From contig CAKZWV010000054.1 in NCBI GenBank assembly GCA_937922005.1, positions 11,855 to 75,854 on the forward strand: a stretch of DNA of 64,000 nt. The letters are read 5' to 3'. Both the position numbers and the translations under genes were made by a program. The notes under the pieces are model-generated. The model did no database searches. It saw nothing but the letters and a program-made list of their open reading frames with translations, and was not told the origin of the DNA. This document shows, piece after piece, positions 8,030 through 55,763 of the stretch. Within the stretch, counting starts at the first letter, position 1. Each line of letters begins with the position of its first letter. The DNA comes from an uncultured Clostridia bacterium (GTDB lineage Bacteria; Bacillota; Clostridia; Saccharofermentanales; DTU023).

Positions 8030-9244
8030 TTAAAGCTGTCGCAATTTTTCCAGAATGTCATCGAGGACTTCTTGCGAGGAATAAAGAATTTCTAGGCGTC
8101 CTTTGCCGGATCCGCTATCATGGATGGCTACCGGAGCGCCGACATGAAAGGCCAGTTCATCCTGAATTTTTTCTATTTCAAGACTTGTAAGAATTTTTCT
8201 TGCATTTTGCCTATCATTACCTGTTAACAAGTTTGGCCCCAGCTGATCGGCCTTTTGCCCGCTTGAGTCTCCCTCCTGGTTCAGATTCGTTTCCTCAGCC
8301 TTCCCCTGATTTTTCTCCTTCAGGGCCCCCACGACTTCCTCCAGGTGGCGAACGCTCCACTGCTTGTTCAGGACTTCCTCACACAGATGCTCCTGGTCTC
8401 CCTGATCTTCCAAAGAAAGCAAGACTTTTGCATGACCCACCGAGAGATCTCCTGAGGCCATCTTCTTTTGTACTCCTTCTGGCAATTGGAGGAGGCGGAG
8501 GCCGTTTGCGATAGCCGACCTTGATTTTCCAATCTTTTTAGCCAGATCATCCTGGGTTAAATCGTTTTGCTCCAAGAGAAGCTGGTAAGCCTGGGCTTCT
8601 TCAATGGGGTTGAGATCCTCCCTTTGAATATTTTCTACTAGGGCCTGCTCTAAGTGCTGGTCCCGGGTTAAATTCCTCACTAAGGCGGGGATCCTTGTGA
8701 GACCTGCCAGCCTGGCCGCCCGCCAGCGCCTTTCTCCAGCCACCAGGCGGTATTCACCCTCCTGGGCCGTCGGCGTAACCAAAATGGGTTGAATAACCCC
8801 ATTAGCTTGGATCGAAGCCGCTAGTTCCTTCAATTTATCCTCGGCAAAGGCCTTTCTTGGCTGGTCGGCAAAAGGACTGATGCAATCAATTTCAATCTCC
8901 TGGACCCGCTCTCCGTCATCCTGGCTCATCGCTAACTCAGCCGAGCTAGAAGCTTGACTAGAAACAGGCACTTGCCAAGACCCTAACTCTTGGCCCTGAG
9001 TCCCCAAGGCGTGGCCTTGTTCGTCAGGAGCAAGTTTCGCTGAACCAAGTCCTTGCTTTGTCCCTTGGGCTTGTCCTGCGTCTTTTGCAGCTGCAGAGCC
9101 TTCTGGTGGAGCTTGTATTTTTGCAGCTGAAAACATCCCAGAAAGCCCACGGCCCAGGCCCGGCGTCCGACCGAGACCAGGACGGCGGGGTGAAGTATTT
9201 TTCTTTTTTTGATTCTTATCGTCCGACATGTCAGTACTTAGCAA
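8030..9244 (-). CDS. parB: Chromosome partitioning protein ParB/Spo0J with a low-complexity insertion
   Basis: N-terminal GLGRGLSG motif, ParB/Srx box GERRWRAARLAG, and an HTH region (LTQDDLAKKIGKSRSAIANGLRLLQL). About 90 aa of Ala/Gly/Gln/Ser-rich sequence lies between the N-terminal motif and the core. The start codon is uncertain: TTG at 9244 or ATG at 9229. Confidence 0.9.
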   Translation of the reverse strand: MLSTDMSDDKNQKKKNTSPRRPGLGRTPGLGRGLSGMFSAAKIQAPPEGSAAAKDAGQAQGTKQGLGSAKLAPDEQGHALGTQGQELGSWQVPVSSQASSSAELAMSQDDGERVQEIEIDCISPFADQPRKAFAEDKLKELAASIQANGVIQPILVTPTAQEGEYRLVAGERRWRAARLAGLTRIPALVRNLTRDQHLEQALVENIQREDLNPIEEAQAYQLLLEQNDLTQDDLAKKIGKSRSAIANGLRLLQLPEGVQKKMASGDLSVGHAKVLLSLEDQGDQEHLCEEVLNKQWSVRHLEEVVGALKEKNQGKAEETNLNQEGDSSGQKADQLGPNLLTGNDRQNARKILTSLEIEKIQDELAFHVGAPVAIHDSGSGKGRLEILYSSQEVLDDILEKLRQL

Positions 9245-9309: not shown

Positions 9310-10149
9310 TTAGCCATTTTGCGCCAGGTTATCTAAGACAACTTGGGCGATGGGTGCCATAAAGGTTGTAGAGAGGCTGGCGTATTTGCTGTATTGATCA
9401 GTGCGTTTGATGAATTCCTTCGCCAGGTCCACATAGGCCTTCCCCCCCTTACTCATCCGGTCGTACTCGATAATGGTGCTCCCATAGCTGGGGGCTTCCG
9501 CCAGGCGAACATTGCGAGGAATCATGGTCTTAAAGCACAGGTCCCCTAGAAAGTCTCGAACATCGGCCTCCACATCCCGGGACAGGCGGTTTCTCCCATC
9601 CGACATGGTTATAATCCCGCCCAGGATGGTAGCCTGAGGCTGGCGCATGGAGTTGACCAAGGCTAAAGAAGTAAAGAGCTGCTTGACCCCCGCTAGGGCA
9701 TAGTATTCGGCTTGGATGGGGATGATGATGGCATCGGAGGCAAACATTGCATTAATGGTGAGATTGCCAAGAGAGGGCGGACAGTCGATAAAAATGAAGT
9801 CGTAGGAGGATTTAAGAGGTTGAATGAGCTTTTTCATCTCATTCAAAGGGTCCTCCAGGCGTGAAAGATCTGATTCTGCCGCAGCCAGGTCTACATGGGA
9901 AGGCAAGAGGTCCAGCTTGGGACGAGCATTTTTCAAAATAGCCTCTTCCAGGCTGTGCTGGCCGGTCAAAACCGTATAGGTGTTGATGGGATTTGGCTCG
10001 TGATAGCCAAGGCCAATGCTGGCATTCATCTGTGCATCGGCGTCAATGAGTAAAATCTTCTTGCCCATGTCGGCCAAGGCGGCAGAGAGGCTGATGCAAG
10101 TGGTTGTCTTTCCTACCCCACCCTTTTGGTTGATCACAGCAATGATCAT
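9310..10149 (-). CDS. parA: Chromosome partitioning ATPase ParA/Soj
   Basis: Deviant Walker A in MIIAVINQKGGVGKTTT. Lies adjacent to parB. Confidence 0.92.
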   Translation of the reverse strand: MIIAVINQKGGVGKTTTCISLSAALADMGKKILLIDADAQMNASIGLGYHEPNPINTYTVLTGQHSLEEAILKNARPKLDLLPSHVDLAAAESDLSRLEDPLNEMKKLIQPLKSSYDFIFIDCPPSLGNLTINAMFASDAIIIPIQAEYYALAGVKQLFTSLALVNSMRQPQATILGGIITMSDGRNRLSRDVEADVRDFLGDLCFKTMIPRNVRLAEAPSYGSTIIEYDRMSKGGKAYVDLAKEFIKRTDQYSKYASLSTTFMAPIAQVVLDNLAQNG

Positions 10150-10191
10150 AGGACTCTCCTTTTCATGATCTGGTCCACCATATCTAATCTT

Positions 10192-12423
<2,232 letters not shown>

Positions 12424-15273: not shown

Positions 15274-15463
15274 AAAGCGATCCTCCTTGATATCTTGGTG
15301 ATCCTGTTTTTTTTGCTGCCCTATAACTAATAAACTAGTAGTTAGATATTAGGGGGTGTTGAAAGTGTTGAAAAGTCCTTGCGAAGGCCTAACGACAAAC
15401 TTGATCCCTGTTGACAAAATCATCATGAATGTTGAAAGCGTGTTAAAAAAGTCCCCGAAGATG
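15274..15463. other. dnaA-dnaN spacer with tandem non-canonical DnaA-box-like 9-mers, a G5 cluster, a TAG-rich stretch and an AT-rich tract (oriC-like module)
   Basis: Box-like 9-mers: TGTTGAAAG 15357-15365, abutting TGTTGAAAA 15366-15374, TGTTGACAA 15409-15417, TGTTGAAAG 15430-15438 and TGTTAAAAA 15441-15449. GGGGG at 15352-15356 is preceded by CTATAACTAATAAACTAGTAGTTAGATATTA. Confidence 0.5.
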
Positions 15464-17098
15464 TCAACAACCTTTCTTTTTTTCCTTGAAGATACTTTTA
15501 CAAGCCTTCTCATAATCCTTGGCGTAACGTTTATCCTCTTTGAGACTCTCAGCCTTTTTCAAGGCATGAAGGACCGTGCTGTGGGTCCGACGAAAGGGGT
15601 CTCCAATTTCTTTCAAAGTCAACGAAGGACAATACTCCCGGATAGCTCCCATGGTCAAGTGACGAACTTCGCACACCTCCTTGGTTCGACTCGTAGAGCG
15701 AAGAATCCGGTCAGGAATTTTAAAAACTTGAGAAAAAATATGGATAATCTCATCCGGACTTGATTCTAAACCTTGAAGATCTTCCTTCGGAACTTCCGTA
15801 TGGTCCAGAACCTTCATATCAATCCGATCTAAGACGGTATAATTGATCCAACATCGGTGACACCAGCCCAAAATACTCCCGACCGTCGGAAAGTCAAGCT
15901 TACAAAAGGCCTGAACATCCTCCGGTTCGTAATGCATCCCATGGAGGTCGGCATAGTGTTGGAATATTTTTTGCGCAAGGGCAGGGGTTGGGGTACCGCC
16001 CATATTGGAGAAATGACTTGTGGCCAGCTTTGATTTGATTTGCGGATTGAGATCGGCTTCACCCGCCAAAAAGCGGTCAGCAATGAGGACCATAAAGGCC
16101 CCGTTGGCTTCAAAATTATTGATAATATTGAGGATTTCCTCTTGAAAGCGCTCCTTTCGGAGGACAAATTGTAAATCATCAATCACAAGAAGCTTGGGCG
16201 TCCGGTATTTTTGGCGAAAATTTGCAAAATTTCTAGCTTTACAGGCTTTTGTGAAGTCATTCATCATCATTTCAGCATTGACATAGAGAAAATTCTCGAG
16301 ATGATGGCTTTTAAGCTTATTCAGGACGGCCCAGACCAGGTGGGTTTTTCCCATCCCACTTGACCCATATAGGTAATAGAGGTTAAGCTCCCCAGGCCTA
16401 AAGTCCTGGCGGAGGGACTTTTGTAGGAAAGTCTCCTCCAAGGACCGCAGCGTAATATAAGCCTCTTGGTTGATCGCATCGATCATAAAATTATCCAGGG
16501 TATAGGGGTAGCCCATTTCCGGAGCAGAAGGCTCTTGCGTTGAAAGCTCTTGGAGCGTGGGCATTTGGCTAGAGGGGCCCATAACGGCAAGCTTTTGATT
16601 TGTTGGTACCTGGCTTGTTGGTATCTGGATTTCTGACTCTTTTGCAGTTTGGCCTCGGAGATCTGGTGTCGGAGTTAGCCAGCTTTGGCAGGTTGGCAAG
16701 GTGCTCACTTTGGAACAAGGGATGATTTCTCCCGTCTGGGTGATCAGATGATAAGAGATGAGCCCCCGGTTGAGGCCGTCTAGGATGGTCGGCCAAAATC
16801 TCATGACAAGGGCCTCGACAGAGTGAGGAATATCCGTGAAAGGACGAACCTCGTCCCACTCATTGATGAGGACAGTCTGTAGGTTAAAGTCTCGCAGGAT
16901 GCCCTGACCTAGGAGGGACAACTGCTTGTGAAAGACCGTCAGAAAATAATCTTGGGGATAGACGATGAGAAAGAGCCGAGATTGGTCCACCCTACAAGTC
17001 TTCAATTCATGGGTAAAAGTATTAAGAATACTTGCACTTTCCATCGAAAGATAAGAGTTAACTAAGCTATCCCATTTTTCTATGGTGACCAGGTCCAT
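15464..17098 (-). CDS. dnaA: Chromosomal replication initiator DnaA (divergent)
   Basis: Walker A GSSGMGKTHL, Walker B LLVIDDLQF, and domain IV ...IGDPFRRTHSTVLHALKK. Lies upstream of dnaN-recF-gyrB. Domain II is long and Pro/Gln/Thr/Ser-rich. Confidence 0.85.
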   Translation of the reverse strand: MDLVTIEKWDSLVNSYLSMESASILNTFTHELKTCRVDQSRLFLIVYPQDYFLTVFHKQLSLLGQGILRDFNLQTVLINEWDEVRPFTDIPHSVEALVMRFWPTILDGLNRGLISYHLITQTGEIIPCSKVSTLPTCQSWLTPTPDLRGQTAKESEIQIPTSQVPTNQKLAVMGPSSQMPTLQELSTQEPSAPEMGYPYTLDNFMIDAINQEAYITLRSLEETFLQKSLRQDFRPGELNLYYLYGSSGMGKTHLVWAVLNKLKSHHLENFLYVNAEMMMNDFTKACKARNFANFRQKYRTPKLLVIDDLQFVLRKERFQEEILNIINNFEANGAFMVLIADRFLAGEADLNPQIKSKLATSHFSNMGGTPTPALAQKIFQHYADLHGMHYEPEDVQAFCKLDFPTVGSILGWCHRCWINYTVLDRIDMKVLDHTEVPKEDLQGLESSPDEIIHIFSQVFKIPDRILRSTSRTKEVCEVRHLTMGAIREYCPSLTLKEIGDPFRRTHSTVLHALKKAESLKEDKRYAKDYEKACKSIFKEKKKGC

Positions 17099-17408
17099 CT
17101 TTTTCCTCCCTATTGGCTTTCCCTAAGAAGGCGGCAAATACTCCTGCCCCCAGCTCGGCAAGTTCGTAGCCTTTGAGGAGGGGGGAGGAGGCCAAATTTC
17201 TTAGGGTCTCCTTATCAGGATAGCAAAGCAAGGTTCTTTTTTCTTGGCAGAAAGCCCGGTCTTATCGTCTCTTTAAAATCTTTGTAGGGCAAATGATGAA
17301 AATGTTGATGGCATGTAACAAAATTTGAACATGTTGAAAAGTCTCGCATCCTGCCTGGTCATCGCCTCTTCGATGTTCAAAACTTGGGAGCTGGGAATAT
17401 TTGTGGGA
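17099..17408. other. dnaA upstream region with additional TGTTGAAAA-type boxes
   Basis: TGTTGATGG 17303-17311, TGTTGAAAA(GTC) 17332-17343 and TGTTCAAAA 17374-17382. The 12-mer TGTTGAAAAGTC is shared with 15366-15377. Confidence 0.45.
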
Positions 17409-24923: not shown

Positions 24924-27890
24924 TCAAATATTTCTTATTTCTACTACTTTGTATCCGATGTCTTCTATGGTCTTTTGGATGGTCCCGTCGCTGAGGTCGA
25001 TTTCTGCGTTGTGACTTTTAAGGGTGGCCATTTTTTCTGGAAGGCTGACCGTCACGTGGACATCGCCAAGGCCTTCTAAGGCCTCTTGAACACGAGCTTT
25101 ACAGTGGTCACACATCATTCCTTCAATAATTACCTGTTTTTTCATATTTGTTCCTCCTTTAGAGATATCATAAACAATATCTTGCGAAACTCGATTTTTA
25201 CTTGGGTTATAAAGGCCGTTTTTTGAGGCCTTTTTCTGATTTTTCTGATTTTGGTTGTTGGGATTATTTGTAGCCGGAAGAAGGGAAAGCATATTCCTTA
25301 CCTGAGGCTGGGGGACTTGGGCCCGCTGGGGCTCGTAAGAAAAAGGATGGTTGACTTGGAAGCGATTGAGGCTGAGAGCGTTACTTACGACGAAGACGGA
25401 ACTCAGGCTCATGCAGGCTGCGGCAATCATCGGATTCAAACTGATCCCCCACTTAGGATAGAGGATTCCGCCGGCAATGGGAATACATAGGACATTATAA
25501 AAGAAGGCCCAGAAATAATTTTCTTTAATTTTACGGAGGGAACGTTTGGCGAGGTCGATGGCACTTCCCACATCCTGTAAATCGGAATGGACGAGGATGA
25601 TATCTGCGGCATCCCTTGCCATATCGGTTCCCGCCCCCAGGGCAATTCCCACATCTGCCCGCATGAGGGCGGGGGCATCGTTAATCCCGTCGCCGACCAT
25701 GGCAACTCTTTTCTTTTGGCCAGGGACTTTATCAGCCTGCTTCTGCGTTTTATTTATTTTTCCATTGCCTATTCCTCCTTCGCTTTGGACTTTTTGGACG
25801 GCAGCATCTTTTTCTTGAGGAAGGACCTGAGCAATGATCTCTTGAATCCCGAGCTCCTGGGCAATGGCTTGGGCAGTTTCTTTTTTATCCCCGGTGAGCA
25901 TGATGGTTTCAAGTCCTTGCCTGTGTAAAGCTTGGATAGCCGCCGGACTGGTGTTCTTAACAAGGTCAGCCGCCGCAAGAATCCCAAGGATCTGGCTAGG
26001 AGAGGCATCATCCGAAGGATCGGCTGAATTTTCTCCTATGGATGCAAGAAACATCAAGGTCTTCCCCTCCTGGGCAAGGTCATTCATGACGGGGTGGAAG
26101 GAATCTAAAGAAATTCCTTCTTCTACCATCAAGGCGTCATTGCCAAGGAGAAGGTGTTTTCCTTCAACCCTACCCCGAAGGCCCCGCCCAGGGATGGCGG
26201 CAAAATTCTCGATTGGAGGTAAGGATGGGGCCTGGGCAGGGGCGGCTTTATGAGTATCTTCATGATCGCTTTCAAGAGCAACTTTATGAGCTGCAAGGAC
26301 GGCTTTGGCCAGGGGCTGTTCTGACCTACTTTCTAAAGCGGCGGCCAGGGTAAGGACTTCTTCAGAGTCGACCCCCTCGGTACAAAGGATGATGTCCGTG
26401 ATATAGGGGGTCCCTTCTGTGAGGGTCCCTGTTTTGTCTAGGATGATCGTATCCACCTCAGCTAGGGTCTGTAGGGCTCCGGCTGTCCGAATGAGGAGGC
26501 CGTGTTTAGCCCCTTGCCCGGTTGCAACCATGATAACCACGGGAGTAGCAAGGCCCAAGGCACAGGGGCAGGAAATGACAAGAATGCTAATAGCCTGTCG
26601 AAGGGCAAATTCAAATGAACTGCCTGTGAGCGTCCAGATAACAAAAGTAAAAATCGCAATTCCTATGACTATAGGAACAAATACTCCTGCAATCTTATCC
26701 GCCAACGACTGAATGGGGGCTTTAGAGGAGGCGGCTTCTTCGACGAGTTGGATGATTTGTGACAGGGTGGTGTCTTCGCCAACGGCCTCTACTCGGAAGG
26801 TAAAGGAGCCGTTTTGGTTGATACTGGCTCCGATCACCTTGTCGCCTGGACCTTTACTGACGGGGAGGGACTCACCGGTAATGGCGGCCTCGTTGACTGC
26901 GCTCAGGCCTTCGGTGACGGTCCCGTCAAGGGGAATGGTTTCACCGGGCTTAATGAGGACAAGGTCACCGACCTTGACATCTTCAATAGGGACCTCTATC
27001 GGAATGCCATTTTGAAGGACCTTTGTAGTCTGTGGTTGAAGGCGGATTAGACCTTCGAGGGCGGACCGGGTTTTCATTTTGGCTTTAACTTCCCAGTACT
27101 TACCGAGGGTGATCAGGGTGAGAATCATCCCAGCCCCCTCAAAATAGAGTTGGTGGCGGTAAAGATGAACTAGGTCATGATCTTGAAAGCCGAGCCCATA
27201 GTTGATGCGCATCAGGGCAAAAATCCCGTAGAGGTAGGATGAAATTGCTCCAACTGCGACCAAACTATCCATCGTTGGATGGAGGCGGATCAGACTCTTT
27301 CCTCCACGTATAAAAAAGCTTCGGTTGATCCATAGAATGGGAGTACATAAAAGTAGCTGAACAAGAGCATAGTTGCTGGCCCCGCCTGTCCCTTGTAAAA
27401 AAGCAGGAAGGGGAAGACCCAGCATGGGGCCCATGGATACGACCATCAAAAGCCCCAAAAGGGGAAGGGAATAGAGAAGGCGCTGCCTCAATTCTTCTGC
27501 CTCTTCTACAAATAGTTGACTGGCCTCGGATGCCTTTCTAGTGCTACTTGACTTAGGGATTGACTTATGGATTGGCTTAGATGTGGCATCTGAGTTAGCT
27601 TTCTGGCTGGCCTCTTTCATCTCGTCTTGAATTTCGGCTTCATAACCGGCCTTCTCCACAGTTCGGACGATGTCCTTCAAGATCTGTTCTTTTCCTTCTG
27701 GACTTTTTTCGACCCTTGGATCCAAGTTTACTCTCATGGATTTCCCCATAAGACTAACTGTGACATCTTCTACCCCGTCTACCTTGCTGACCGCCTTTTG
27801 AACAGCTGCCTCGCAAGCTGCACAGGTCATTCCCTTTACCCAGAAGTTTGCAACTTGATTCTTCTGGATTGAATTCTTTATCTGTGTCAT
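24924..27890 (-). CDS. copA: Copper-translocating P1B-type ATPase with an in-frame C-terminal CopZ-like HMA domain
   Basis: N-terminal HMA GMTCAACEAAV, CPC motif SCPCALGLATP, DKTGTLT and GDGINDAP. The last 73 aa (MKKQVIIEGMMCDHCKARV...) form a second HMA domain. Confidence 0.93.
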   Translation of the reverse strand: MTQIKNSIQKNQVANFWVKGMTCAACEAAVQKAVSKVDGVEDVTVSLMGKSMRVNLDPRVEKSPEGKEQILKDIVRTVEKAGYEAEIQDEMKEASQKANSDATSKPIHKSIPKSSSTRKASEASQLFVEEAEELRQRLLYSLPLLGLLMVVSMGPMLGLPLPAFLQGTGGASNYALVQLLLCTPILWINRSFFIRGGKSLIRLHPTMDSLVAVGAISSYLYGIFALMRINYGLGFQDHDLVHLYRHQLYFEGAGMILTLITLGKYWEVKAKMKTRSALEGLIRLQPQTTKVLQNGIPIEVPIEDVKVGDLVLIKPGETIPLDGTVTEGLSAVNEAAITGESLPVSKGPGDKVIGASINQNGSFTFRVEAVGEDTTLSQIIQLVEEAASSKAPIQSLADKIAGVFVPIVIGIAIFTFVIWTLTGSSFEFALRQAISILVISCPCALGLATPVVIMVATGQGAKHGLLIRTAGALQTLAEVDTIILDKTGTLTEGTPYITDIILCTEGVDSEEVLTLAAALESRSEQPLAKAVLAAHKVALESDHEDTHKAAPAQAPSLPPIENFAAIPGRGLRGRVEGKHLLLGNDALMVEEGISLDSFHPVMNDLAQEGKTLMFLASIGENSADPSDDASPSQILGILAAADLVKNTSPAAIQALHRQGLETIMLTGDKKETAQAIAQELGIQEIIAQVLPQEKDAAVQKVQSEGGIGNGKINKTQKQADKVPGQKKRVAMVGDGINDAPALMRADVGIALGAGTDMARDAADIILVHSDLQDVGSAIDLAKRSLRKIKENYFWAFFYNVLCIPIAGGILYPKWGISLNPMIAAACMSLSSVFVVSNALSLNRFQVNHPFSYEPQRAQVPQPQVRNMLSLLPATNNPNNQNQKNQKKASKNGLYNPSKNRVSQDIVYDISKGGTNMKKQVIIEGMMCDHCKARVQEALEGLGDVHVTVSLPEKMATLKSHNAEIDLSDGTIQKTIEDIGYKVVEIRNI

Positions 27891-27981
27891 GTTGTCCTTC
27901 CTTAATAGCTATGGCTCTTCTGCGACGACTCTATCATGGATCGGCCTAAGCAGAATTTACCTATCCCCAGTATAACAAAAT

Positions 27982-28013
27982 CCTCCCCTTTTACCATTTG
28001 GTAAAAGGGGAGG
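27982..28013. promoter_or_regulatory. Perfect 14-bp inverted repeat upstream of copA (operator or bidirectional hairpin)
   Basis: CCTCCCCTTTTACC-attt-GGTAAAAGGGGAGG, located 92-123 nt upstream of the copA ATG. Confidence 0.4.
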
Positions 28014-28505
28014 TATTATTGTTCATAAAAGTGTTAAACAGGAGATGATTCAAGTATAGTTAGATAACTCTAACTTGTCAAGTACTTTTAGAAAAATTTT
28101 TAAATTTTCTAAAGATCCGATGATACGGGGCTCTTTATGTCTTTTCTTTGATCTTAAATCTGGCCTAAGGGAAGCTTCTGAATAGCAGGCAAGAACTTAT
28201 CTTGACTTTCTTTAGAAAATAGGCAAGGGGGACAGAAACAAGGAGGGCAAGGGTGCTCTGATCTTTTGAGACTAAAGAAAATGATTTGGCATAACTGTAC
28301 CTACAAAAGCTGAGTGTATGGTCTTAGTGTAGGACGGATGGATGCGGTTAATCGAGCCATGACCCGTCTGGATTCGAACATTAATCTGAGTCTATTAGCA
28401 AAGAACAGTTGAATCCTTTCATTCTGCTGACTATTGTTATTTATATGTAATAATAGCAAGCTTATTGAGATTATTCTTCTACATGGAACAAATCTTATAC
28501 CATGA

Positions 28506-28531
28506 GAGAATGTTCCACGTGGAACATTCTC
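28506..28531. other. parS: parS site 1 (26-bp perfect palindrome; core TGTTCCACGTGGAACA at 28511-28526)
   Basis: GAGAATGTTCCACGTGGAACATTCTC. One mismatch to the B. subtilis parS TGTTCCACGTGAAACA. Confidence 0.8.
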
Positions 28532-28586
28532 GAAAAGTTAAACTCCTAAAAGTTGTACGAGACGAAAATGTTTGAGTAATTTATAA

Positions 28587-28606
28587 ATTGTTCCACGTGG
28601 AACAAT
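28587..28606. other. parS: parS site 2 (20-bp perfect palindrome; core 28589-28604)
   Basis: ATTGTTCCACGTGGAACAAT. Confidence 0.8.
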
Positions 28607-28664
28607 CTCTTAATGTTAAATTTCTTAAAAGGGTTTGAGCCGGAAAATGCTTAGGCAGTTTATT

Positions 28665-28686
28665 AATTGTTCCACGTGGAACAATT
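28665..28686. other. parS: parS site 3 (22-bp perfect palindrome; core 28668-28683)
   Basis: AATTGTTCCACGTGGAACAATT. Confidence 0.8.
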
Positions 28687-28800
28687 CTGGCTTGATGGAA
28701 CTTAGGGATTAACATAGAAAAGTAGGACCTTATAACATCAAAAAGATCTGCTAAAAAGTTCCTTTTCAAATATGTTACAATAGCGTAGCAAGTAAAACAA

Positions 28801-28950
28801 AATGAAAACATTTGAACGGAGGAAGTCCGACGTTGAGATACAATGAAATATGTTAAAACACGGTGAGACGGGGTGAAGCACGCTGAAACGGGATAAAGTA
28901 CGTTGAAAACGATGAAGCACGTTGAGGCACAATGAAGTTCATTGAACATG
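28801..28950. repeat. Helically phased 10-bp repeat array, 12 consecutive units (T[G/A]A[A/G][A/G]nn plus 3 nt) and 2 more upstream
   Basis: cgtTGAGATA caaTGAAATA tgtTAAAACA cggTGAGACG gggTGAAGCA cgcTGAAACG ggaTAAAGTA cgtTGAAAAC gaTGAAGCAC gtTGAGGCAC aaTGAAGTTC atTGAACATG. A 10-bp period is not a multiple of 3, so this is not a coding repeat. Confidence 0.75.
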
Positions 28951-29064
28951 CCCAACCTCGCCCAAGATCCAATATTGTAGATCATGATCCATGATCGTAG
29001 CCTCGATCCAACATCGCAGACAAAGAATTAATATCATACAGAGATAGAAAGGTAAAGAATAACT

Positions 29065-29628
29065 ATGAAAGACTTACACCCCTTCCAAGTGAGACGCCAA
29101 GATGTGGCACTCTTCATCATTGATATCCAAGAAAAACTCCTCCCGATCATGCCAAATCCGGAGGAAATAAAAAAACAAAATGAAATTCTCCTCAAGATTG
29201 CAAAAGCCTATGAACTGCCAACCTTATACACCGAACAATATCCCAAGGGACTTGGAGCGACGGTAGAACCACTAGGAAGCCTCTTAAAAGAAACAGCAGC
29301 CATCTACGCAAGTAAGACCGCCTATAATGGCCTCACTCCCGAAATCTTAAAAGCTCTTAAGAAGACAGGTCGGAACCAGATAATTATAGGGGGCATTGAA
29401 ACCCATATTTGTGTCTATCAGACCACAAGAAGTCTACTGGCGGAAGGCTATGAGGTGATTATCAATCAGGATGCAGTAGGCTCGAGATTCACAGGGAACA
29501 AGGCCAATGCTCTAGATCTTTTCACTCAAATGGGTGCAACCGTCATGAATACGGAAACCATTATGTTTGACCTGATGGGCGATGCCAAGGATCCGCACTT
29601 CAAGGAACTCCAGGCTTTAATCAAGTAG
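29065..29628 (+). CDS. Isochorismatase-family cysteine hydrolase
   Basis: ALFIIDIQEKL...QIIIGGIETHICVYQT is a typical isochorismatase-fold motif set. Confidence 0.8.
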   Translation: MKDLHPFQVRRQDVALFIIDIQEKLLPIMPNPEEIKKQNEILLKIAKAYELPTLYTEQYPKGLGATVEPLGSLLKETAAIYASKTAYNGLTPEILKALKKTGRNQIIIGGIETHICVYQTTRSLLAEGYEVIINQDAVGSRFTGNKANALDLFTQMGATVMNTETIMFDLMGDAKDPHFKELQALIK

Positions 29629-40930: not shown

Positions 40931-43900
40931 ACGAACCCAGGTAATCCCCTGGGTTGGACCCTACCTCCCGCAAAAGGAGCGTAACCAAGCGGCCCCGTGT
41001 TGGGCCGCTCTTTTTGCTTGCCTTCTTGCCCTTGCTTGCTTTTTGCCCACCCTGATTGAGAATCGGGGGCAGTTCTACTTGACCAATGACTTCAACGAGC
41101 AGCAAATTCCTTTCAACATATACGTCAATGCCAGTCTCAAGGAGGCCATCCGAGCGCACTTTTCACCTACAGGCGAGGCCATCCGAGCGCACTTTGCACC
41201 CACAGACAAGGCCCAGGAGGACAGCATATCTGCAGGAGGTACCCAGCAATCCCTTGCCTCGGACTCATTAGCTTCCCAGCCTTCCCCGCCTACTCCATCA
41301 TCGCCAGCTACCCCGCCCACCTCATCCCCTTCCGCCTCCCTCATCGGCCGACGAACCGTGGATACCAAGACCTACCTGGCCGAACACCCGCCCCGACCAC
41401 CCCATCCTGGTGCCCAGTGGGCCTACGACTTTGATCTCGGCTCCCCCCTGGTGGGACAATTTGCTTTTTATAACCTTGGAAGCCCATTTTTCTGGCTCTA
41501 CTTCCTTTTTCCACCGGAATCCTTCTACTACCTGAGCGCCATCCTCCTCATCCTCAAATACTCCCTCGCCGCTTTTTCCGCCTCTCGTTATGCCAGCCTT
41601 TTTTTCCGCAAGGGCAAGTGGATTATTCTGACCGGTCTCCTCTACGCTTTTTCGGCTTTTCAGACGGTTAACCTCGTTTTTAATCATTTTCATGAGGTGG
41701 TTGCCCTCTTTCCTTTTTTACTGATTGCCTTAGAAAAGCTCCTCCGTGAGGGGAAGAGAGTCCAATTTCTTGGGGTAGCCGCCCTGTGCTGTCTTTGTAA
41801 TTATTTTTTCTTTGTTTCGGAAATCGTTTTCCTGGCCATATACTTCCTCATTCGTTTTATCTTGCCCAGCTTCCTAGGACCACAGCGGATCAGCCTCAAG
41901 ACCTATGGGCGGGCTTTCCTGGCTCAGGTCAGGACCATCGCCCTGGAGGGACTCTTAGGCATCCTCCTTGCTGGTATCCTCCTCGTGCCTGCCTATGCTA
42001 ATGTCAAGGGCAATCCCCGGGTCAGCGAAGGGGATGAAGTCCCCCTTGTCTGGGAACGAAGCGACCGCCTTTACATGGCCAAATCCTTTTTCCTCCCGGC
42101 TGATACTCCCTGGAGGGAAACCACCTATTACAAATCCTATTGGAATTCCATCGCCTATGCTCTGCCCTTTTTTGGGGCCCTAGCCTGGCTGACCTACCTC
42201 TTAGCCGGATCTTGGAACTTTTTACGAGGAATATTGGTGGTATCGGGAGTATTTGCCCTATTTCCTAAGCTAAATGCCCTATTCTACCTGAATCAAGCTT
42301 ACGATTACCGGCGCTGGTACTTCATGCCTATTCTTTTTGCCAGCCTGGCGACGGCCGCCCTCATGCGAGGCTTGGAGGCCGGTAGCCTCCGCCTCTGGCC
42401 TGCCCCCAAGTCTCGTTCCCGTCAGCTTCCACCAGACCCCCTGCCTAAGGAATCTGTAACAAATCCTCCCCAAGCTTTTTCACAACATAAGCGCCCAGCC
42501 AGGAGGAGAGGGGCCTGGGTCCAATCCCACGCCCTGCTCCTGGCTGTGGGAATTATGGGCCTCATCCTCTGCGGATACTTTCAGGAAAAGAAGAAATTTA
42601 TCGATGACATCCCCCGGGAAGACCGGGTTGACCACTATTTTGCTATCAATCCTAAGCCTGAAAAGAAGCCTACAGGTACCCGCGAATTAGCCTCCGACAG
42701 CCCCAACTCAGGCGCCGAAAGCGCCAGCTACGCTTCGGATCTCCGCAACCCGGCCTCTGAGGCCTTTGATCCCCAAGATCCCGATCCCAAGGGCCTCTGC
42801 CAACTTCGCAACCAGGCTCTCTTTGGCTTTTTTGGGACGCTGTCCCTCCTTATTGCCCTGCAAGTACTCCATGACCTCCGCCAGCCAGCCCCCACCCCAG
42901 TCCAGAAGGGTGCAGGTTCGGCTCATGCCCCCACCCTAGTCCAGAAGGGGACGGGCTCGGCCCCTGCCCCCACCCCTATTCTCAGCTCTGTCACCGCAAC
43001 AGGCCTGAGCATAGCCATCATTCTTGGCAACTGGACCTACATCGATCGGGCCCATATGGTCTACAACGACGAGCGCAACGGCCCCTTCACCCTGCGAGCC
43101 GAAGCTAGCTTCCTTCTCGACCAACTGCCCGCCGACGCCCAAGCCTACCGCTTCTATCAGACCTGGCTCCCCCGCAACATCGGCTGCCTCAGCGGCCTCT
43201 GCGACCTCCGAGCCTTCACCAGCACCGTCGATGGCCCCCTCTTTGCCTATCACCGCTACTTCGGCCGCTATCGTACCGTCCACTCCGACTACAAAAACCC
43301 CGCCGAGTCCACCCTCCTCGGCGAACGCTTCTACCTGAGCTCCTACCCGGCCTACTCCACCCTCCAAGCCCACAAAGACCTTATCCTCCGAGCAGTCCTC
43401 CTCTACAATCCGACCACCCCCTGGGATTCCCAACTCACCCTCCTTACCAATACTCCCTGGCTCAGTCTTTCTTCCTCTTTTCCGCCTCTTCTCAGCTCAG
43501 CCTCGCGGACTCCAGCTAGCACCCCTGCCAGTTCCAGCCCGTTTTCCCTCGCACAAGCCACATCCAAGGCCATGGAGGAGGAGGTCCACGCTGCCTGTGC
43601 GTCAGGCCAATCCGCCATATATCTCTATGAAAGAACCAAAGCCCTTCCCCTCGGATTCCTCTACCGCAGATACTCCCTTGTTGATGATGTCCAGGACGTC
43701 ATGATGTTCCACGTGGAACATTTGCCAACGGGTCAGGGAAAATACGAGGCTTATCGGACTTCCAATAAAGCCTTGTCTTTTCTAGCCTCCTTGCCTATAG
43801 CTCAAAAAGACCTAGACCGGGCCGCAGCCTACGGAGAGAGATGCTTACCTACAGATCTTTTGACGCAGCCCGCCGAACCAGACACAATTGTCGATCACGA

Positions 43901-44495
43901 CAACCCTGACGACTCTGCCAGTCCTGCCGAACCCGCCGAACCGTGGGCTACCTGGGTTGACGAAACGGAGAAGACCAACGAAAATGACAAGGAACAAGAA
44001 GTTGACTGGGAGGGCCAGGTAAAAAAGATCCAAGATTTTCTCGTAGACCGCCACCTCCAAGATGCCCAAGCCCATAATTGGCGTCGGGACAGTCAGGGCC
44101 TGCACTTTACCATTGACGTAGGCAATCGGCCAGGCCTATATTTTCTGTCCATCCCGGCAAGCAGGGGCTGGCATTGCAAGATCGACGGAGAAGAGGAGGA
44201 GATCTTCACCGTGGCTGGTCTTATGGCTGTTGGACTTTCTCCCGGATCCCACCAAGTGGACTTCCTTTTTAAGGACCCATTTTTGGCCCTTGGCCTTAAA
44301 GTGACTGCCCTCGCCCTCATTCTCACGGCCCTCTATGGGGGCCTGGTCCTCCTCTTCAAGCGCCCATCCACCCCATCTACTCAATCCACTTCATCCAGCC
44401 CATCCAGTCCATCTACCCCCTCCACCCAATTCATTTCATCCAGCCCATCTAGTCCATCTACCCCATCCATTCCTTCAAGAAAGGAGCTCTCATGA
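40911..44495 (+). CDS. yfhO: YfhO-family polytopic membrane glycosyltransferase (very long, multiple low-complexity inserts)
   Basis: Many TM helices, an N-terminal LTNDFNEQQIPFNIY (D..Q..PF) motif, and a position immediately after a CsbB-like GT2. The ORF opens at 40839, but GTG 40911 has GGAGG 5 nt upstream. Overlaps the GT2 gene. Confidence 0.7.
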   Translation: MTKKSPRRTQVIPWVGPYLPQKERNQAAPCWAALFACLLALACFLPTLIENRGQFYLTNDFNEQQIPFNIYVNASLKEAIRAHFSPTGEAIRAHFAPTDKAQEDSISAGGTQQSLASDSLASQPSPPTPSSPATPPTSSPSASLIGRRTVDTKTYLAEHPPRPPHPGAQWAYDFDLGSPLVGQFAFYNLGSPFFWLYFLFPPESFYYLSAILLILKYSLAAFSASRYASLFFRKGKWIILTGLLYAFSAFQTVNLVFNHFHEVVALFPFLLIALEKLLREGKRVQFLGVAALCCLCNYFFFVSEIVFLAIYFLIRFILPSFLGPQRISLKTYGRAFLAQVRTIALEGLLGILLAGILLVPAYANVKGNPRVSEGDEVPLVWERSDRLYMAKSFFLPADTPWRETTYYKSYWNSIAYALPFFGALAWLTYLLAGSWNFLRGILVVSGVFALFPKLNALFYLNQAYDYRRWYFMPILFASLATAALMRGLEAGSLRLWPAPKSRSRQLPPDPLPKESVTNPPQAFSQHKRPARRRGAWVQSHALLLAVGIMGLILCGYFQEKKKFIDDIPREDRVDHYFAINPKPEKKPTGTRELASDSPNSGAESASYASDLRNPASEAFDPQDPDPKGLCQLRNQALFGFFGTLSLLIALQVLHDLRQPAPTPVQKGAGSAHAPTLVQKGTGSAPAPTPILSSVTATGLSIAIILGNWTYIDRAHMVYNDERNGPFTLRAEASFLLDQLPADAQAYRFYQTWLPRNIGCLSGLCDLRAFTSTVDGPLFAYHRYFGRYRTVHSDYKNPAESTLLGERFYLSSYPAYSTLQAHKDLILRAVLLYNPTTPWDSQLTLLTNTPWLSLSSSFPPLLSSASRTPASTPASSSPFSLAQATSKAMEEEVHAACASGQSAIYLYERTKALPLGFLYRRYSLVDDVQDVMMFHVEHLPTGQGKYEAYRTSNKALSFLASLPIAQKDLDRAAAYGERCLPTDLLTQPAEPDTIVDHDNPDDSASPAEPAEPWATWVDETEKTNENDKEQEVDWEGQVKKIQDFLVDRHLQDAQAHNWRRDSQGLHFTIDVGNRPGLYFLSIPASRGWHCKIDGEEEEIFTVAGLMAVGLSPGSHQVDFLFKDPFLALGLKVTALALILTALYGGLVLLFKRPSTPSTQSTSSSPSSPSTPSTQFISSSPSSPSTPSIPSRKELS
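43704..43721. other. parS: parS site 4, intragenic (18-bp perfect palindrome ATGTTCCACGTGGAACAT)
   Basis: The 16-bp core is identical to the three intergenic sites. Lies inside the yfhO-like CDS and encodes MFHVEH. Confidence 0.75.
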
Positions 44496-52108: not shown

Positions 52109-53419
52109 ATGGAGAAAGACGGCAAAACCGGCAAAGATAGCAAAGACAGCAAAGTAAGCAAAGTAAGTAAAGATAGCAGAGAACCTGCCTTGAGATTCAA
52201 GGGCTTTGAAAGAGAGTGGGAAGAGAGGAAGCTGGGGGAGCTCGGCGACACTTACAGTGGTCTTTCTGGTAAAATGAAAAGTGATTTTGGCCACGGAGAT
52301 GCTAGATATATCACCTATCTCAATGTCTTTGCAAATCCAATTACTGACCCGAAAATGACAGAGCCCATTGAAATAGATTCCAAACAAAATGAAGTCGAAA
52401 TTGGCGATGTATTTTTTACGACTTCCTCAGAAACTCCAGAAGAAGTCGGAATGTCCTCTGTCTTACTTGAGAAACAAGATCACACCTACCTCAATAGTTT
52501 TTGCTTTGGCTACCGACCTAGTATTGATATTGATAAGCACTATCTTGCATACATGCTACGCTCTAAGCTCATGAGGGAGCAAATTACCTTCCTGGCTCAA
52601 GGCATCTCCAGATACAATATTTCCAAAAATAAAGTAATGGAAATCAGCGTTCCCTTACCCTCACCAAAGGAACAAATGCTGATTGGACAGTACCTAAGCT
52701 ATCTCGATCGCCTCATCTCCCTCCAACAACAAAAACTCAACAAGCTCGAAGAATTCAAAAAAGCCATGCTCGATAAGATGTTTCCGCAAAAGGGAAGCAG
52801 GGTTCCGGAAATACGATTTCAGGGGTTTACGGAGCCATGGGAGGAGGTTGTTCTGAGTAAATTGGTTAGTCAAGTGACACGAAATGAACCGTCGTCGGAG
52901 GCTCCCATCATGATGATTACAGCAAATGATGGATTTATTGACCAATCAGAGAGATATAATTTTAACAATGCAGGAGAAAGTCTAAAAAAATATATTCTTC
53001 TTAAAAAAGGTGAGCTTGCTTACAATCACGGAGCTTCAAAACTGCGTCCTTATGGTTCCTGTTTTGCCCTAACGAATGAAGATTATGCACGTATTCCATT
53101 TGTTTATCACTGCTTTTCTACAGATACACAAAACCCAGAGTTTCTTTCTTTCGTCCTAAATGGGCAAAGTGTTATGTCTCAGCTGCGCAAAATAATATCC
53201 TCAGGAGCAAGAATGGATGGGTTACTTAACATTTCATTTGATGATTATACATCCCTATCCATATCAATCCCAACTAAAAAAGAGCAAAATCAGATTGTCT
53301 TATACTTCTCCCAGCTCGACCGCCTCATCTCCCTCCACCGACAAAAGCTCGAAAAGCTCCAGTCCCTTAAAAAGGCCATGTTGGAGCAGATGTTCCCTGC
53401 GCCGCCAAGACAAGCTTAA
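52109..53419 (+). CDS. hsdS: Type I restriction-modification specificity subunit HsdS (solitary)
   Basis: Two target-recognition domains, each followed by a conserved helix: LDRLISLQQQKLNKLEEFKKAMLDKMFP and LDRLISLHRQKLEKLQSLKKAMLEQMFP. The N-terminus LRFKGFEREWEERKLGEL is typical. Confidence 0.88.
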   Translation: MEKDGKTGKDSKDSKVSKVSKDSREPALRFKGFEREWEERKLGELGDTYSGLSGKMKSDFGHGDARYITYLNVFANPITDPKMTEPIEIDSKQNEVEIGDVFFTTSSETPEEVGMSSVLLEKQDHTYLNSFCFGYRPSIDIDKHYLAYMLRSKLMREQITFLAQGISRYNISKNKVMEISVPLPSPKEQMLIGQYLSYLDRLISLQQQKLNKLEEFKKAMLDKMFPQKGSRVPEIRFQGFTEPWEEVVLSKLVSQVTRNEPSSEAPIMMITANDGFIDQSERYNFNNAGESLKKYILLKKGELAYNHGASKLRPYGSCFALTNEDYARIPFVYHCFSTDTQNPEFLSFVLNGQSVMSQLRKIISSGARMDGLLNISFDDYTSLSISIPTKKEQNQIVLYFSQLDRLISLHRQKLEKLQSLKKAMLEQMFPAPPRQA

Positions 53420-54853: not shown

Positions 54854-55111
54854 ATGAATCTAGCTAAAGTCTCGGCCAATGGCCAAATTACCGTACCTAT
54901 TGAAATCAGAAAATCCTTAAATCTGAAACCAGGTGACAAAATACTGTTTTACCAAAAGCCTAACGGGGAGGTCGTGGTAAGCAATGCTTCAGCCGCAGCT
55001 CTCGAGAAAGCGCAATTGGCCTTCGCCGGAGTAGCTGAAGCTATGGGGGTTCATACGGAAGAGGATGTTCAACGTTTGATCGATGAAGTTCGATATGGAA
55101 AGCAAGAGTAA
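54854..55111 (+). CDS. AbrB/MazE/SpoVT-type antitoxin
   Basis: MNLAKVSANGQITVPIEIRKSLNLKPGDKILF is a typical SpoVT-AbrB swapped-hairpin N-terminus. Confidence 0.8.
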   Translation: MNLAKVSANGQITVPIEIRKSLNLKPGDKILFYQKPNGEVVVSNASAAALEKAQLAFAGVAEAMGVHTEEDVQRLIDEVRYGKQE

Positions 55112-55505
55112 TATGAGAATTCTCGTGGATACCAATGTATTGTTTTCTGCCTTACTATTTCCGAACTCTAAACCTGCGCAAGCGTTGCTTCACATTCTAA
55201 ACGAGCATGATATTGTCTTATGCGATCAAACTATTGCTGAATTGTGGGAAGTAATCGGAAGAAAAGCACCGCAGATGTTACCAGATGCAGAAGTCTTTCT
55301 AGCTGAGATTTCCTATGAGTTAATTCCTGCTGTTCGATACGGCGTAAAATTGATAAGAGATGCTAGTGATCAGCCTATTTTAAATGCGGCGATTGTCTTT
55401 AATGTTGATGTAATCCTTACAGGTGATAAAGACTTTCTAAGTCTGGGTTTAGAGCAACCACAATGTTTAACTGTTTCACAATTTCTAACCCAGGAAGGAT
55501 ACTGA
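55083..55505 (+). CDS. PIN-domain toxin (VapC-like)
   Basis: ILVDTNVLFSAL ... TGDKDFL. The probable start is ATG 55113, 1 nt after the antitoxin stop; the ORF opens at 55083. Confidence 0.8.
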   Translation: MKFDMESKSNMRILVDTNVLFSALLFPNSKPAQALLHILNEHDIVLCDQTIAELWEVIGRKAPQMLPDAEVFLAEISYELIPAVRYGVKLIRDASDQPILNAAIVFNVDVILTGDKDFLSLGLEQPQCLTVSQFLTQEGY

Positions 55506-55675: not shown

Positions 55676-55763
55676 GGAAGAGTGGCCGAGCGGTTGAAGG
55701 CACTGGTCTTGAAAACCAGCAAGGGTCACACCTTCATGGGTTCGAATCCCATCTCTTCCGCCA
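55676..55763 (+). tRNA. tRNA-Ser (anticodon UGA)
   Basis: Acceptor GGAAGAG/CTCTTCC, anticodon stem-loop CTGGT-CTTGAAA-ACCAG, a long variable arm, T-arm GGGTTCGAATCCC, and an encoded CCA. Confidence 0.92.

Follow-up and report, generated by a model that had tools for sequence, protein, structure and literature searches.

Chromosomal ParABS systems, such as those of B. subtilis (Spo0J/parS), Caulobacter, Pseudomonas and Corynebacterium, have an established mechanism, and their parS sites are commonly clustered near replication origins (reviewed in PMC7333895). Bipartite origins (oriC) of Bacillota are represented by B. subtilis incA/B-dnaA-incC and by C. difficile oriC1/oriC2, the latter with its unwinding site in the dnaA-dnaN spacer (PMC7561715), and the basal unwinding system can be searched for as a DnaA box followed by a spacer, NAN trios and an AT-rich stretch (PMC8287927). 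Here we analyzed a 64-kb stretch of DNA (the window, contig CAKZWV010000054.1) in which a gene-free gap of 1.17 kb (27891-29064) separates the start codon of a P-type ATPase gene from an isochorismatase-family gene. A first-pass annotation had proposed this gap as a displaced oriC or a centromere region. Our data suggest that the gap is probably a composite but conventional divergent control region that also hosts a tandem parS centromere, while oriC would lie at the flanks of dnaA.

The gap coincides with a switch in gene strand, as the first-pass annotation had described. On its left side, 15 of 19 confidently assigned genes were on the minus strand, including parB, parA, gyrB, recF, dnaN, dnaA, mutM and the genes for NAD synthase, an ABC-2 permease, enolase and the ATPase; the only plus-strand genes encode a CDP-alcohol transferase, a DUF436 protein, a PerR-like regulator and an MntR-like regulator. 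On its right side, up to 49.3 kb, every one of the 11-12 open reading frames (ORFs) was on the plus strand (isochorismatase, addB, addA, AIM24, FemAB, GT2, YfhO, HutD and three unknowns). GyrB was 61-66% identical to proteins of Eubacteriales, Clostridiaceae and Clostridia metagenome-assembled genomes (MAGs), and the organism, which is represented by metagenome assemblies only, was therefore regarded as Bacillota/Clostridia-like.

Relatives of the window, all of them Logan metagenome contigs, were found by searching the protein database and by look-ups of exact proteins. The samples of the lineage are ERR14760428, SRR18765397, SRR21747335 and ERR14760513. In the protein database, the relatives of AddB were 99, 90, 87, 75 and 73% identical (next best, ≤22%) and those of DnaA 99, 90, 85 and 77% identical (next best, ≤26%), whereas a single-protein AddB scan of the genome contig collection found no relative. 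L002 and L003 belong to the same species as the window, L004 is the relative with 90% AddB identity, and L005 and L006 are relatives at 73-75%. The order ATPase (minus), gap, isochorismatase-addB-addA-AIM24-FemAB-GT-YfhO (plus) was common to all relatives fetched. The genes for the ATPase, MntR-like and PerR-like regulators, eno, ABC2, NAD synthase, mutM, dnaA, dnaN, recF, x, gyrB, parA, parB and aldolase were also kept, and the synteny held down to 73% AddB and 77% DnaA identity. Because the gene order is kept in all relatives, the strand switch is not a recent local inversion; this was the case that the first-pass annotation had named as fatal to its proposal, and both the switch and a 10.5-kb block co-oriented with dnaA were found in every relative. 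The gap itself was far more variable. Its mean column identity was 59% in an alignment of five gaps, and the comparison of the window with L005, the most distant of them, gave 56% identity when aligned pairs were counted and 25% when all columns were. Conservation in the gap was confined to three islands: an ATPase promoter/operator/hairpin block, the parS cores and a plus-strand -10 block.

The central island consists of three exact copies of the perfect 16-bp palindrome TGTTCCACGTGGAACA, located at 28511-28526, 28589-28604 and 28668-28683, in agreement with the three tandem parS sites of the first-pass annotation. The first copy lies in the first unit of a 79-bp tandem repeat and has an equivalent in all relatives, and the second lies in the unit at 28586-28664. 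A degenerate parS-like site with three mismatches (28475-28490) is probably a decayed fourth unit, and a fourth perfect parS was found 15 kb rightward, inside the YfhO-family gene (43705-43720). When up to three mismatches were allowed, five matches to parS were observed in the window compared to 0.12 expected by chance. The palindrome belongs to the TGTTNCACGTGAAACA consensus family.

The same gap contained parS sites in every relative. L003 had three sites at the spacing of the window (78/79 bp), L004 three sites at 73/74 bp, L005 four sites at 50 bp and L006 three to four sites at 69/100 bp. The gap of L002, with two sites 78 bp apart (L002 1281-1374), was the gap of the window minus exactly one 79-bp unit (28586-28664) and was otherwise identical; the parS copy number is therefore polymorphic (2 vs. 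3) within the species. Both the sequences between the parS sites and the repeat periods differed between lineages, the spacer sequences being unrelated, and since the palindromes were kept nonetheless, both they and their multiplicity are under selection. No parS was found in the 13-22-kb dnaA-centered stretches fetched for the relatives, which run from the enolase/ATPase side to the gyrB/parB side. The array is origin-proximal: its distance to dnaA with the box clusters on either side is 11-13 kb. The genes for ParA and ParB are 18 kb from the array: a parA/soj-type ATPase gene at 9310-10149 (minus) and parB at 8030-9244 (minus), whose product contains ParB_N, HTH_ParB and ParB_C domains and is the presumed reader of the parS sites. 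Taken together, two to four consensus parS sites in the same gap of every relative, nonconserved DNA between them and a ParA/ParB pair 18 kb away bear out the centromere option of the first-pass annotation, and the sequence comparison supports the array as an origin-proximal chromosomal centromere. ParB, encoded at 8.0-9.2 kb, would bind the three tandem parS sites at 28.47-28.69 kb. Following the known ParABS mechanism, it would next be loaded as a CTP-dependent clamp and would spread and recruit SMC, and ParA would pull it. The array would sit in DNA outside the reach of the transcripts from both predicted promoters described below.

The array resembles the chromosomal ParABS systems (PMC7333895) in its consensus-type 16-bp palindrome, in its multiple copies, in its closeness to dnaA (about 13 kb at most), in the nearby ParA/ParB genes and in the conservation of the sites while their flanks drift. 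It differs from them in that the sites are head-to-tail units of 50-79 bp confined to one intergenic gap, with the 2-versus-3 polymorphism within one species. In an exact-pattern scan, at least 120 species genomes of many phyla had two TGTTCCACGTGGAACA copies at a distance of 50-80 bp, and among the matches listed, about half of the parS-pair loci had parAB within the 8 kb fetched; a tandem close arrangement of parS is thus not unusual and is very common as a centromere. Among the same listed matches, the nearest named relatives (Ruminococcaceae KHP2 and Clostridia MAGs; GyrB 62-64%) carried the parS pair between gyrB and parA (L029 3599-3693, L050 5239-5309, L087 3393-3468 and L055 5938-6013), whereas in the window the array and this junction are 18 kb apart, with dnaA between them. 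The corresponding gyrB-parA spacer of the window (10150-10191) is only 42 bp long and without parS, which argues that the array has been relocated.

The flanks of dnaA were then compared with the described origins. The canonical DnaA box TTATCCACA gave 13 matches in the window compared to 10.9 expected, with no cluster near dnaA. Because this box was neither enriched nor clustered, variant boxes were analyzed. The exact 8-mer TTTCAACA occurred 10 times in the window compared to 2.6 expected, and five of the 10 copies, each oriented as dnaA, lay in the two dnaA-flanking spacers or next to them. When near matches were counted, the dnaA flanks contained at least 11 same-orientation 9-mers of the TTTTCAACA type. 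The dnaA-dnaN spacer (15274-15463, minus) carries five of these 9-mers, which all point the same way as dnaA and of which the last two are in tandem; CCCCC and an AT-rich, trio-like stretch follow, and the layout toward dnaN is TTTTCAACA-C-TTTCAACA, CCCCC, and then TAATATCT AAC TAC TAG TTTATTAG. The trio run starts 8 nt after the C-run and is of minimal length, with three NAN, and the segment 15321-15350 ranks third among the least stable 30-mers of the window. A second box cluster was present in the mutM-dnaA spacer (17099-17408, minus), which showed 87.7% identity over its aligned part.

All boxes of the dnaA flanks were kept in three other lineages, over which the mean column identity was 93% for the dnaA-dnaN spacer and 88% for the mutM-dnaA spacer. 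The dnaA-dnaN spacer was 190 nt long both in the window and in L008, the most distant relative, with 84.7% identity, compared to approximately 70% identity at the third codon positions of dnaN and eno against the same relative. Judged by this conservation, the dnaA-flanking spacers are under strong purifying selection. The flanks therefore carry the features of a bipartite Bacillota-type oriC, with an inferred noncanonical box. It is the flanks of dnaA, not the gap, that share two-sided box clusters with B. subtilis incA/B-dnaA-incC and C. difficile oriC1/oriC2 (PMC7561715), and the tandem boxes nearest to dnaN, the short G+C run, the NAN trios and the AT-rich stretch parallel the basal unwinding system (PMC8287927). 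Unlike the described bipartite origins, the boxes of the window are TTTTCAACA-like, not TTATCCACA; a co-oriented block from mutM to the ATPase gene, not rpmH-rnpA, lies upstream of dnaA; DnaA is extremely divergent; and the trio run is short. By sequence and conservation, the replication start is most likely a bipartite origin flanking dnaA (15.3-15.5 and 17.1-17.4 kb), with the dnaA-dnaN spacer most likely its unwinding half. Such an origin would use a lineage-specific DnaA box close to TTTTCAACA.

The DnaA protein itself (15464-17098, minus) was unusual. Among 5.8 billion proteins, the closest one beyond its small clade was 26% identical (E = 7e-20). It gave no DnaA_N domain match and scored 165 bits against TIGR00362, for which the cutoff is 344, and the recognition motif of its domain IV reads RRTHSTVLHA, compared to GRDHTTVIHA in B. 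subtilis. GyrB on the same contig was ordinary, unlike DnaA (61-66% to Clostridia). The divergent DnaA together with the TTTTCAACA-like flanking boxes suggests a re-specified pair of initiator and box.

The compositional skew was examined within the 64-kb window, out of a contig of 82 kb. Cumulative GC skew had a local minimum at 14-15 kb and a local maximum at the gap, at 29 kb; in this local version of the check that the first-pass annotation had proposed for the whole genome, the minimum was away from the gap. Coding-strand skew at third codon positions (GC3 skew) was negative in most genes regardless of their position. Raw GC skew mainly tracks the coding strand and is insufficient alone to locate the origin within 64 kb, and a gene-level scan was therefore used, in which candidate origins were tested by the separation of leading and lagging genes in coding-strand GC3 skew (39 genes). 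Separation was best at 17 kb (t = 4.2; p = 2e-4, nominal and uncorrected for the scan) and formed a plateau between 14 and 24 kb, while the value at 28-29 kb was t = 2.2. For the five minus-strand genes in dispute, which lie between dnaA and the gap, the mean GC3 skew was -0.24, compared to -0.29 for undisputed lagging and -0.06 for undisputed leading genes (Welch test, p = 0.48 vs. lagging and p = 0.02 vs. leading). The disputed genes resemble lagging-strand genes, and GC3 skew favors an origin at dnaA, a result that is suggestive but not decisive.

Several observations weigh against an origin at dnaA. The DnaA box was deduced solely from clustering and conservation, and the scan with a position weight matrix (PWM) was partly circular, since the matrix was trained on the same sites. 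Skew in this region is weak and largely follows the coding strand, and the plus-strand genes at 40-45 kb have a strongly negative skew that no single-origin model within the window accounts for. The least stable 100 bp of the whole window (28014-28113) are in the gap. With the origin placed at dnaA, the mutM-to-ATPase block, approximately 10.5 kb and including enolase, would be head-on to the rightward fork. The first-pass annotation had pointed to this consequence for about 10 kb of genes, and the arrangement is a conserved one.

The left third of the gap contains the ATPase control region. The ATPase gene (24924-27890, minus) encodes two HMA domains, and its product scored above the NCBIfam cutoff for the copper-translocating subfamily. 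Toward this gene points a sigma-70-like promoter, TTGACA-17-TATACT, at 28053-28081 (minus), with 11 of 12 consensus matches. The promoter spacer holds an inverted repeat, AGTTAGA-N4-TCTAACT (28058-28075), which contains TAGTTAGATA; its arms were kept in all relatives, whereas the 4-bp center varied among lineages. This pattern is the signature of a dimeric repressor site, and the repeat is operator-like in sequence. No second copy was found in the window, and because the repeat is unique there, neither a regulon nor a regulator was assigned; the neighboring MntR-like and PerR-like genes may be regarded as candidate regulators only. Directly upstream of the -35 element, at the position of an UP element, is an A/T tract (28086-28114, 90% A/T), which contains the inverted repeat TTTAGAAAAATT/AAATTTTCTAAA and ranks fifth among the least stable 30-mers of the window. 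The relatives kept the A/T richness of this tract and its sequence only in part.

Between this promoter and the ATPase start codon, the leader forms a hairpin with a 14-bp G+C-rich stem followed by a T-rich tail (27982-28013, minus). The stem was kept in all relatives, with approximately 70 nt inserted in the loop in L005. The 164-nt leader (27885-28048, minus) folded better than shuffled sequences (z = -4.35), with an outer stem enclosing the 14-bp hairpin; no compensatory pairs were seen, the sequences being too similar. The hairpin could be an attenuator, the terminator of a short RNA or no more than a terminator-like element, and the upstream element as a whole could be an attenuator or a small RNA. 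The initial transcribed region of the leader contains two conserved 9-mers on the minus strand, TTATGAACA (28020-28028) and TGTTTAACA (28032-28040, which is TGTTAAACA on the other strand), both weakly box-like. The whole upstream element was near-invariant in the relatives (window 27960-28085, minus; L004 2175-2289; L006 740-853; L005 8730-8900). The first-pass annotation had taken TGTTAAACA at 28032-28040, TAGTTAGATA at 28057-28066 and the 29-nt A/T tract as signs of an origin. All were located where it had placed them, as was each of its other motifs, and TAGTTAGATA does recur in the dnaA-dnaN spacer (15339-15348), a match that is not significant alone, since approximately 0.4 such matches are expected (an estimate for any 10-mer of the gap against the 190-bp target on both strands). 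On the present comparison, TGTTAAACA, TAGTTAGATA and the A/T tract read as parts of one conserved ATPase promoter/operator/leader block. In this proposal, the left third of the gap (27.95-28.12 kb) would control a Cu-type ATPase through a promoter with an A/T upstream tract, a repressor-type repeat between -35 and -10, and a hairpin leader.

No significant structure was found on either strand in the mid-gap region 28085-28300. Rfam searches of the whole window at the gathering score returned only a tRNA at 55.7 kb, and searches of the gap at E values up to 10 returned only sub-threshold hairpin/miRNA noise and no known RNA family. The mechanical ORFs of the gap (134, 64 and 52 aa, minus strand) overlap repeats that were not found in the relatives, and a Pfam search with them gave no match; the first-pass annotation had noted no recognizable signal in any ORF of the gap of 60 aa or more.

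The right third of the gap precedes the isochorismatase-family gene (29065-29628, plus). The block 28766-28789, AAATrTGTTACAATrGC, was invariant or nearly so in all five lineages and contains a putative extended -10 promoter, TGtTACAAT (28773-28781, plus), for the isochorismatase-addB-addA operon; it was read from sequence and conservation and was absent from the list of the promoter scan. Downstream, in the presumed 5' leader, is a phased array (28801-28950, plus) built of fifteen 10-bp units, which alternate to form a 20-bp unit and keep TGA[A/G] in register. Twelve TGA[A/G] motifs, or 14 when T[G/A]A[A/G] was allowed, were spaced on a 10-bp register with a single 9-bp step (28803-28943), which confirms the 12-14 helically phased motifs of the first-pass annotation. 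The self-identity of the array was 0.51 at lag 10, compared to approximately 0.25 at other lags, and no comparable phased array was found elsewhere in the window. A TGA[A/G]-rich stretch at 12062-12211 (minus) was considered as a second array and rejected as an acidic coding stretch of gyrB. The array is followed by three to four copies of a 20-bp GATC-containing repeat (28957-29040, plus; consensus CAAGATCCAATATCGTAGAC), with five GATC in 28966-29008; L004 has 5.9 copies of this repeat. In L005, an unrelated 17-bp array of 5.5 copies (AAAGCGCACTCCATCAA; L005 9203-9300) lies between the parS cluster and the isochorismatase-addBA promoter. Short-period arrays beside this promoter thus recur in different forms across lineages. 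The conserved extended -10 promoter would drive isochorismatase-addBA through a presumed 275-nt leader of fast-evolving 10/20-bp repeats.

The phased array is read here, from its distribution among the lineages, as a fast-evolving, lineage-specific tandem expansion without demonstrable function. We regard it as unlikely, although not negligibly so, that the array (28801-28950) is instead a functional protein-binding array, consisting either of low-affinity DnaA sites for titration or oligomerization, with the core TTCAAC on the minus strand, or of sites for a direct-repeat-binding regulator that would block or tune the transcription of isochorismatase-addBA. The strict register of 14 of the 15 units, unique in the window, and the identical sequence in three independent samples of one species (window, L002 and L003) are consistent with such binding, as is the presence of short-period arrays beside the same promoter in other lineages (20-bp unit in L004, 17-bp unit in L005). 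The minus-strand unit consensus, GCTTCAACG, also matches TTTTCAACA at six of nine positions, and one unit is TTTTCAACG. However, a 6/9 match in some phase and strand of a 10-bp repeat is expected in about 20% of cases by chance (an estimate), and repeats born by slippage yield many copies without selection. The array is not conserved, with approximately four units at 90% AddB identity (L004) and none at 73-75% (L005 and L006), and in the other lineages the arrays have a different sequence and period and are placed differently with respect to the promoter. Moreover, an RNA signal was lacking: the fold of a 285-nt leader with the array was no better than that of shuffled sequences (z = -0.8), and no Rfam match was obtained. 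DnaA-box clusters outside oriC, such as the B. subtilis DBCs and E. coli datA, are similar in having same-orientation, box-related 9-10-mers near the origin that could titrate DnaA, but the units in the window match the inferred box at only about six of nine positions, and the array appears to be absent from close relatives. The array was judged neither an iteron centromere nor a DnaA-box cluster, being short or absent in relatives, with the 6/9 box match and no adaptor gene nearby.

A slightly less likely alternative, to which we give little credence, is that part of the gap binds the divergent DnaA and contributes to the control of replication at a place beside the centromere. The candidate sites would be the invariant, box-like 9-mer pair near 28014-28113 and the fifteen TTCAAC-core units at 28801-28950, acting as a second origin module or as a titration array physically coupled to parS.

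It is less probable again, and in our view improbable, that the gap is a displaced or additional oriC, with DnaA on the 9-mers at 28.02-28.04 kb and/or on the phased array and opening at 28.09-28.11 kb, so that the genes on both sides would be co-oriented with the forks. This proposal draws on the strand switch located exactly at the gap and conserved in the relatives, on the least stable 100 bp noted above, on TTATGAACA and TGTTTAACA, which are invariant in all relatives and weakly resemble the box, and on the usual proximity of parS to origins (PMC7333895). The box scan points the other way. The gap had five low PWM hits with a maximum of 10.4, the highest score reached by TTATGAACA and TGTTTAACA, whereas the dnaA flanks had six hits per best 500-bp window, most of them scoring 12-15, the range of the boxes adjoining dnaA. 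Canonical TTATCCACA with up to one mismatch was not found in the gap, and the lineage-type 9-mers gave one 1-mismatch match only. The gap does contain an unstable A/T tract; relative to the 9-mers, it lies on the side opposite to that given by the published order of box, spacer, trio and AT-rich stretch (PMC8287927), and it occupies the UP-element position of the ATPase promoter. The gap is poorly conserved overall, with only promoter blocks and parS cores kept, and the local maximum of cumulative GC skew there reflects a sign change from plus to minus, the opposite of that at an origin. The GC3-skew scan fits worse at the gap than at 17 kb, and the dnaA flanks hold the full set expected of a Bacillota bipartite origin. 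The displaced oriC of the first-pass annotation is thus not upheld: the gap has no lineage-box cluster, its phased array is not conserved, it lies at a skew maximum, and the boxes are at the dnaA flanks instead.

Plasmid iteron centromeres include F sopC, with tandem repeats that each carry one palindrome, and R1 parC, with 11-bp phased ParR iterons. The parS units of the window are likewise tandem direct repeats with one palindrome each, and the likeness of the 10-bp phased array to R1 parC is superficial; in contrast to both plasmid systems, no parR/parM or sopAB-type gene is found beside the repeats, and the phased array is not conserved. The least probable explanation, which can be dismissed almost entirely, is that an integrated plasmid or prophage left the parS repeats behind as a remnant of its own centromere. 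Despite the resemblance to F sopC, the palindrome is of the chromosomal consensus type (TGTTNCACGTGAAACA family), parS occupies this one housekeeping gap in each of the five lineages, no mobile-element genes adjoin it, the window encodes no ParAB pair other than that of the chromosomal gyrB-parA-parB set, and identical palindrome pairs adjoin parAB in related Clostridia.

Other features of the window were recorded. The gyrB gene (10192-12423, minus) was called at 743 aa, approximately 50-100 residues longer at the N-terminus than its homologues, which cover 84-94% of the called protein. The extension includes an acidic GAA/GAT-rich stretch, and the true start codon may be further downstream than called. 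The region at 40-45 kb, with the YfhO-family and HutD genes, had a coding-strand GC3 skew of approximately -0.39 and an elevated G+C content of 0.55-0.57. In-frame tandem repeats were numerous there, one of them (44363-44469) consisting of 11.9 copies of a 9-bp unit. Toward its right end, the window resembles accessory or mobile DNA, with a lone type I restriction-modification specificity subunit (52109-53419), a PIN-domain protein (55083-55505), a tRNA gene (55676-55760) and an IS110-family transposase (59860-61407).

The locus is a cautionary case, in that a clean strand switch with A/T tracts, palindromes and phased repeats was insufficient to call an origin, and the comparison of a handful of relatives was enough to resolve the origin and centromere readings. 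Two features are of specialist interest: the conserved 10.5-kb block, including enolase, that adjoins oriC head-on to the presumed fork, and a parS array located away from the gyrB-parA junction used by the nearest named relatives. The more unusual biology of this lineage is outside the gap, in a DnaA that is at most 26% identical to any other and whose boxes have apparently been re-specified.

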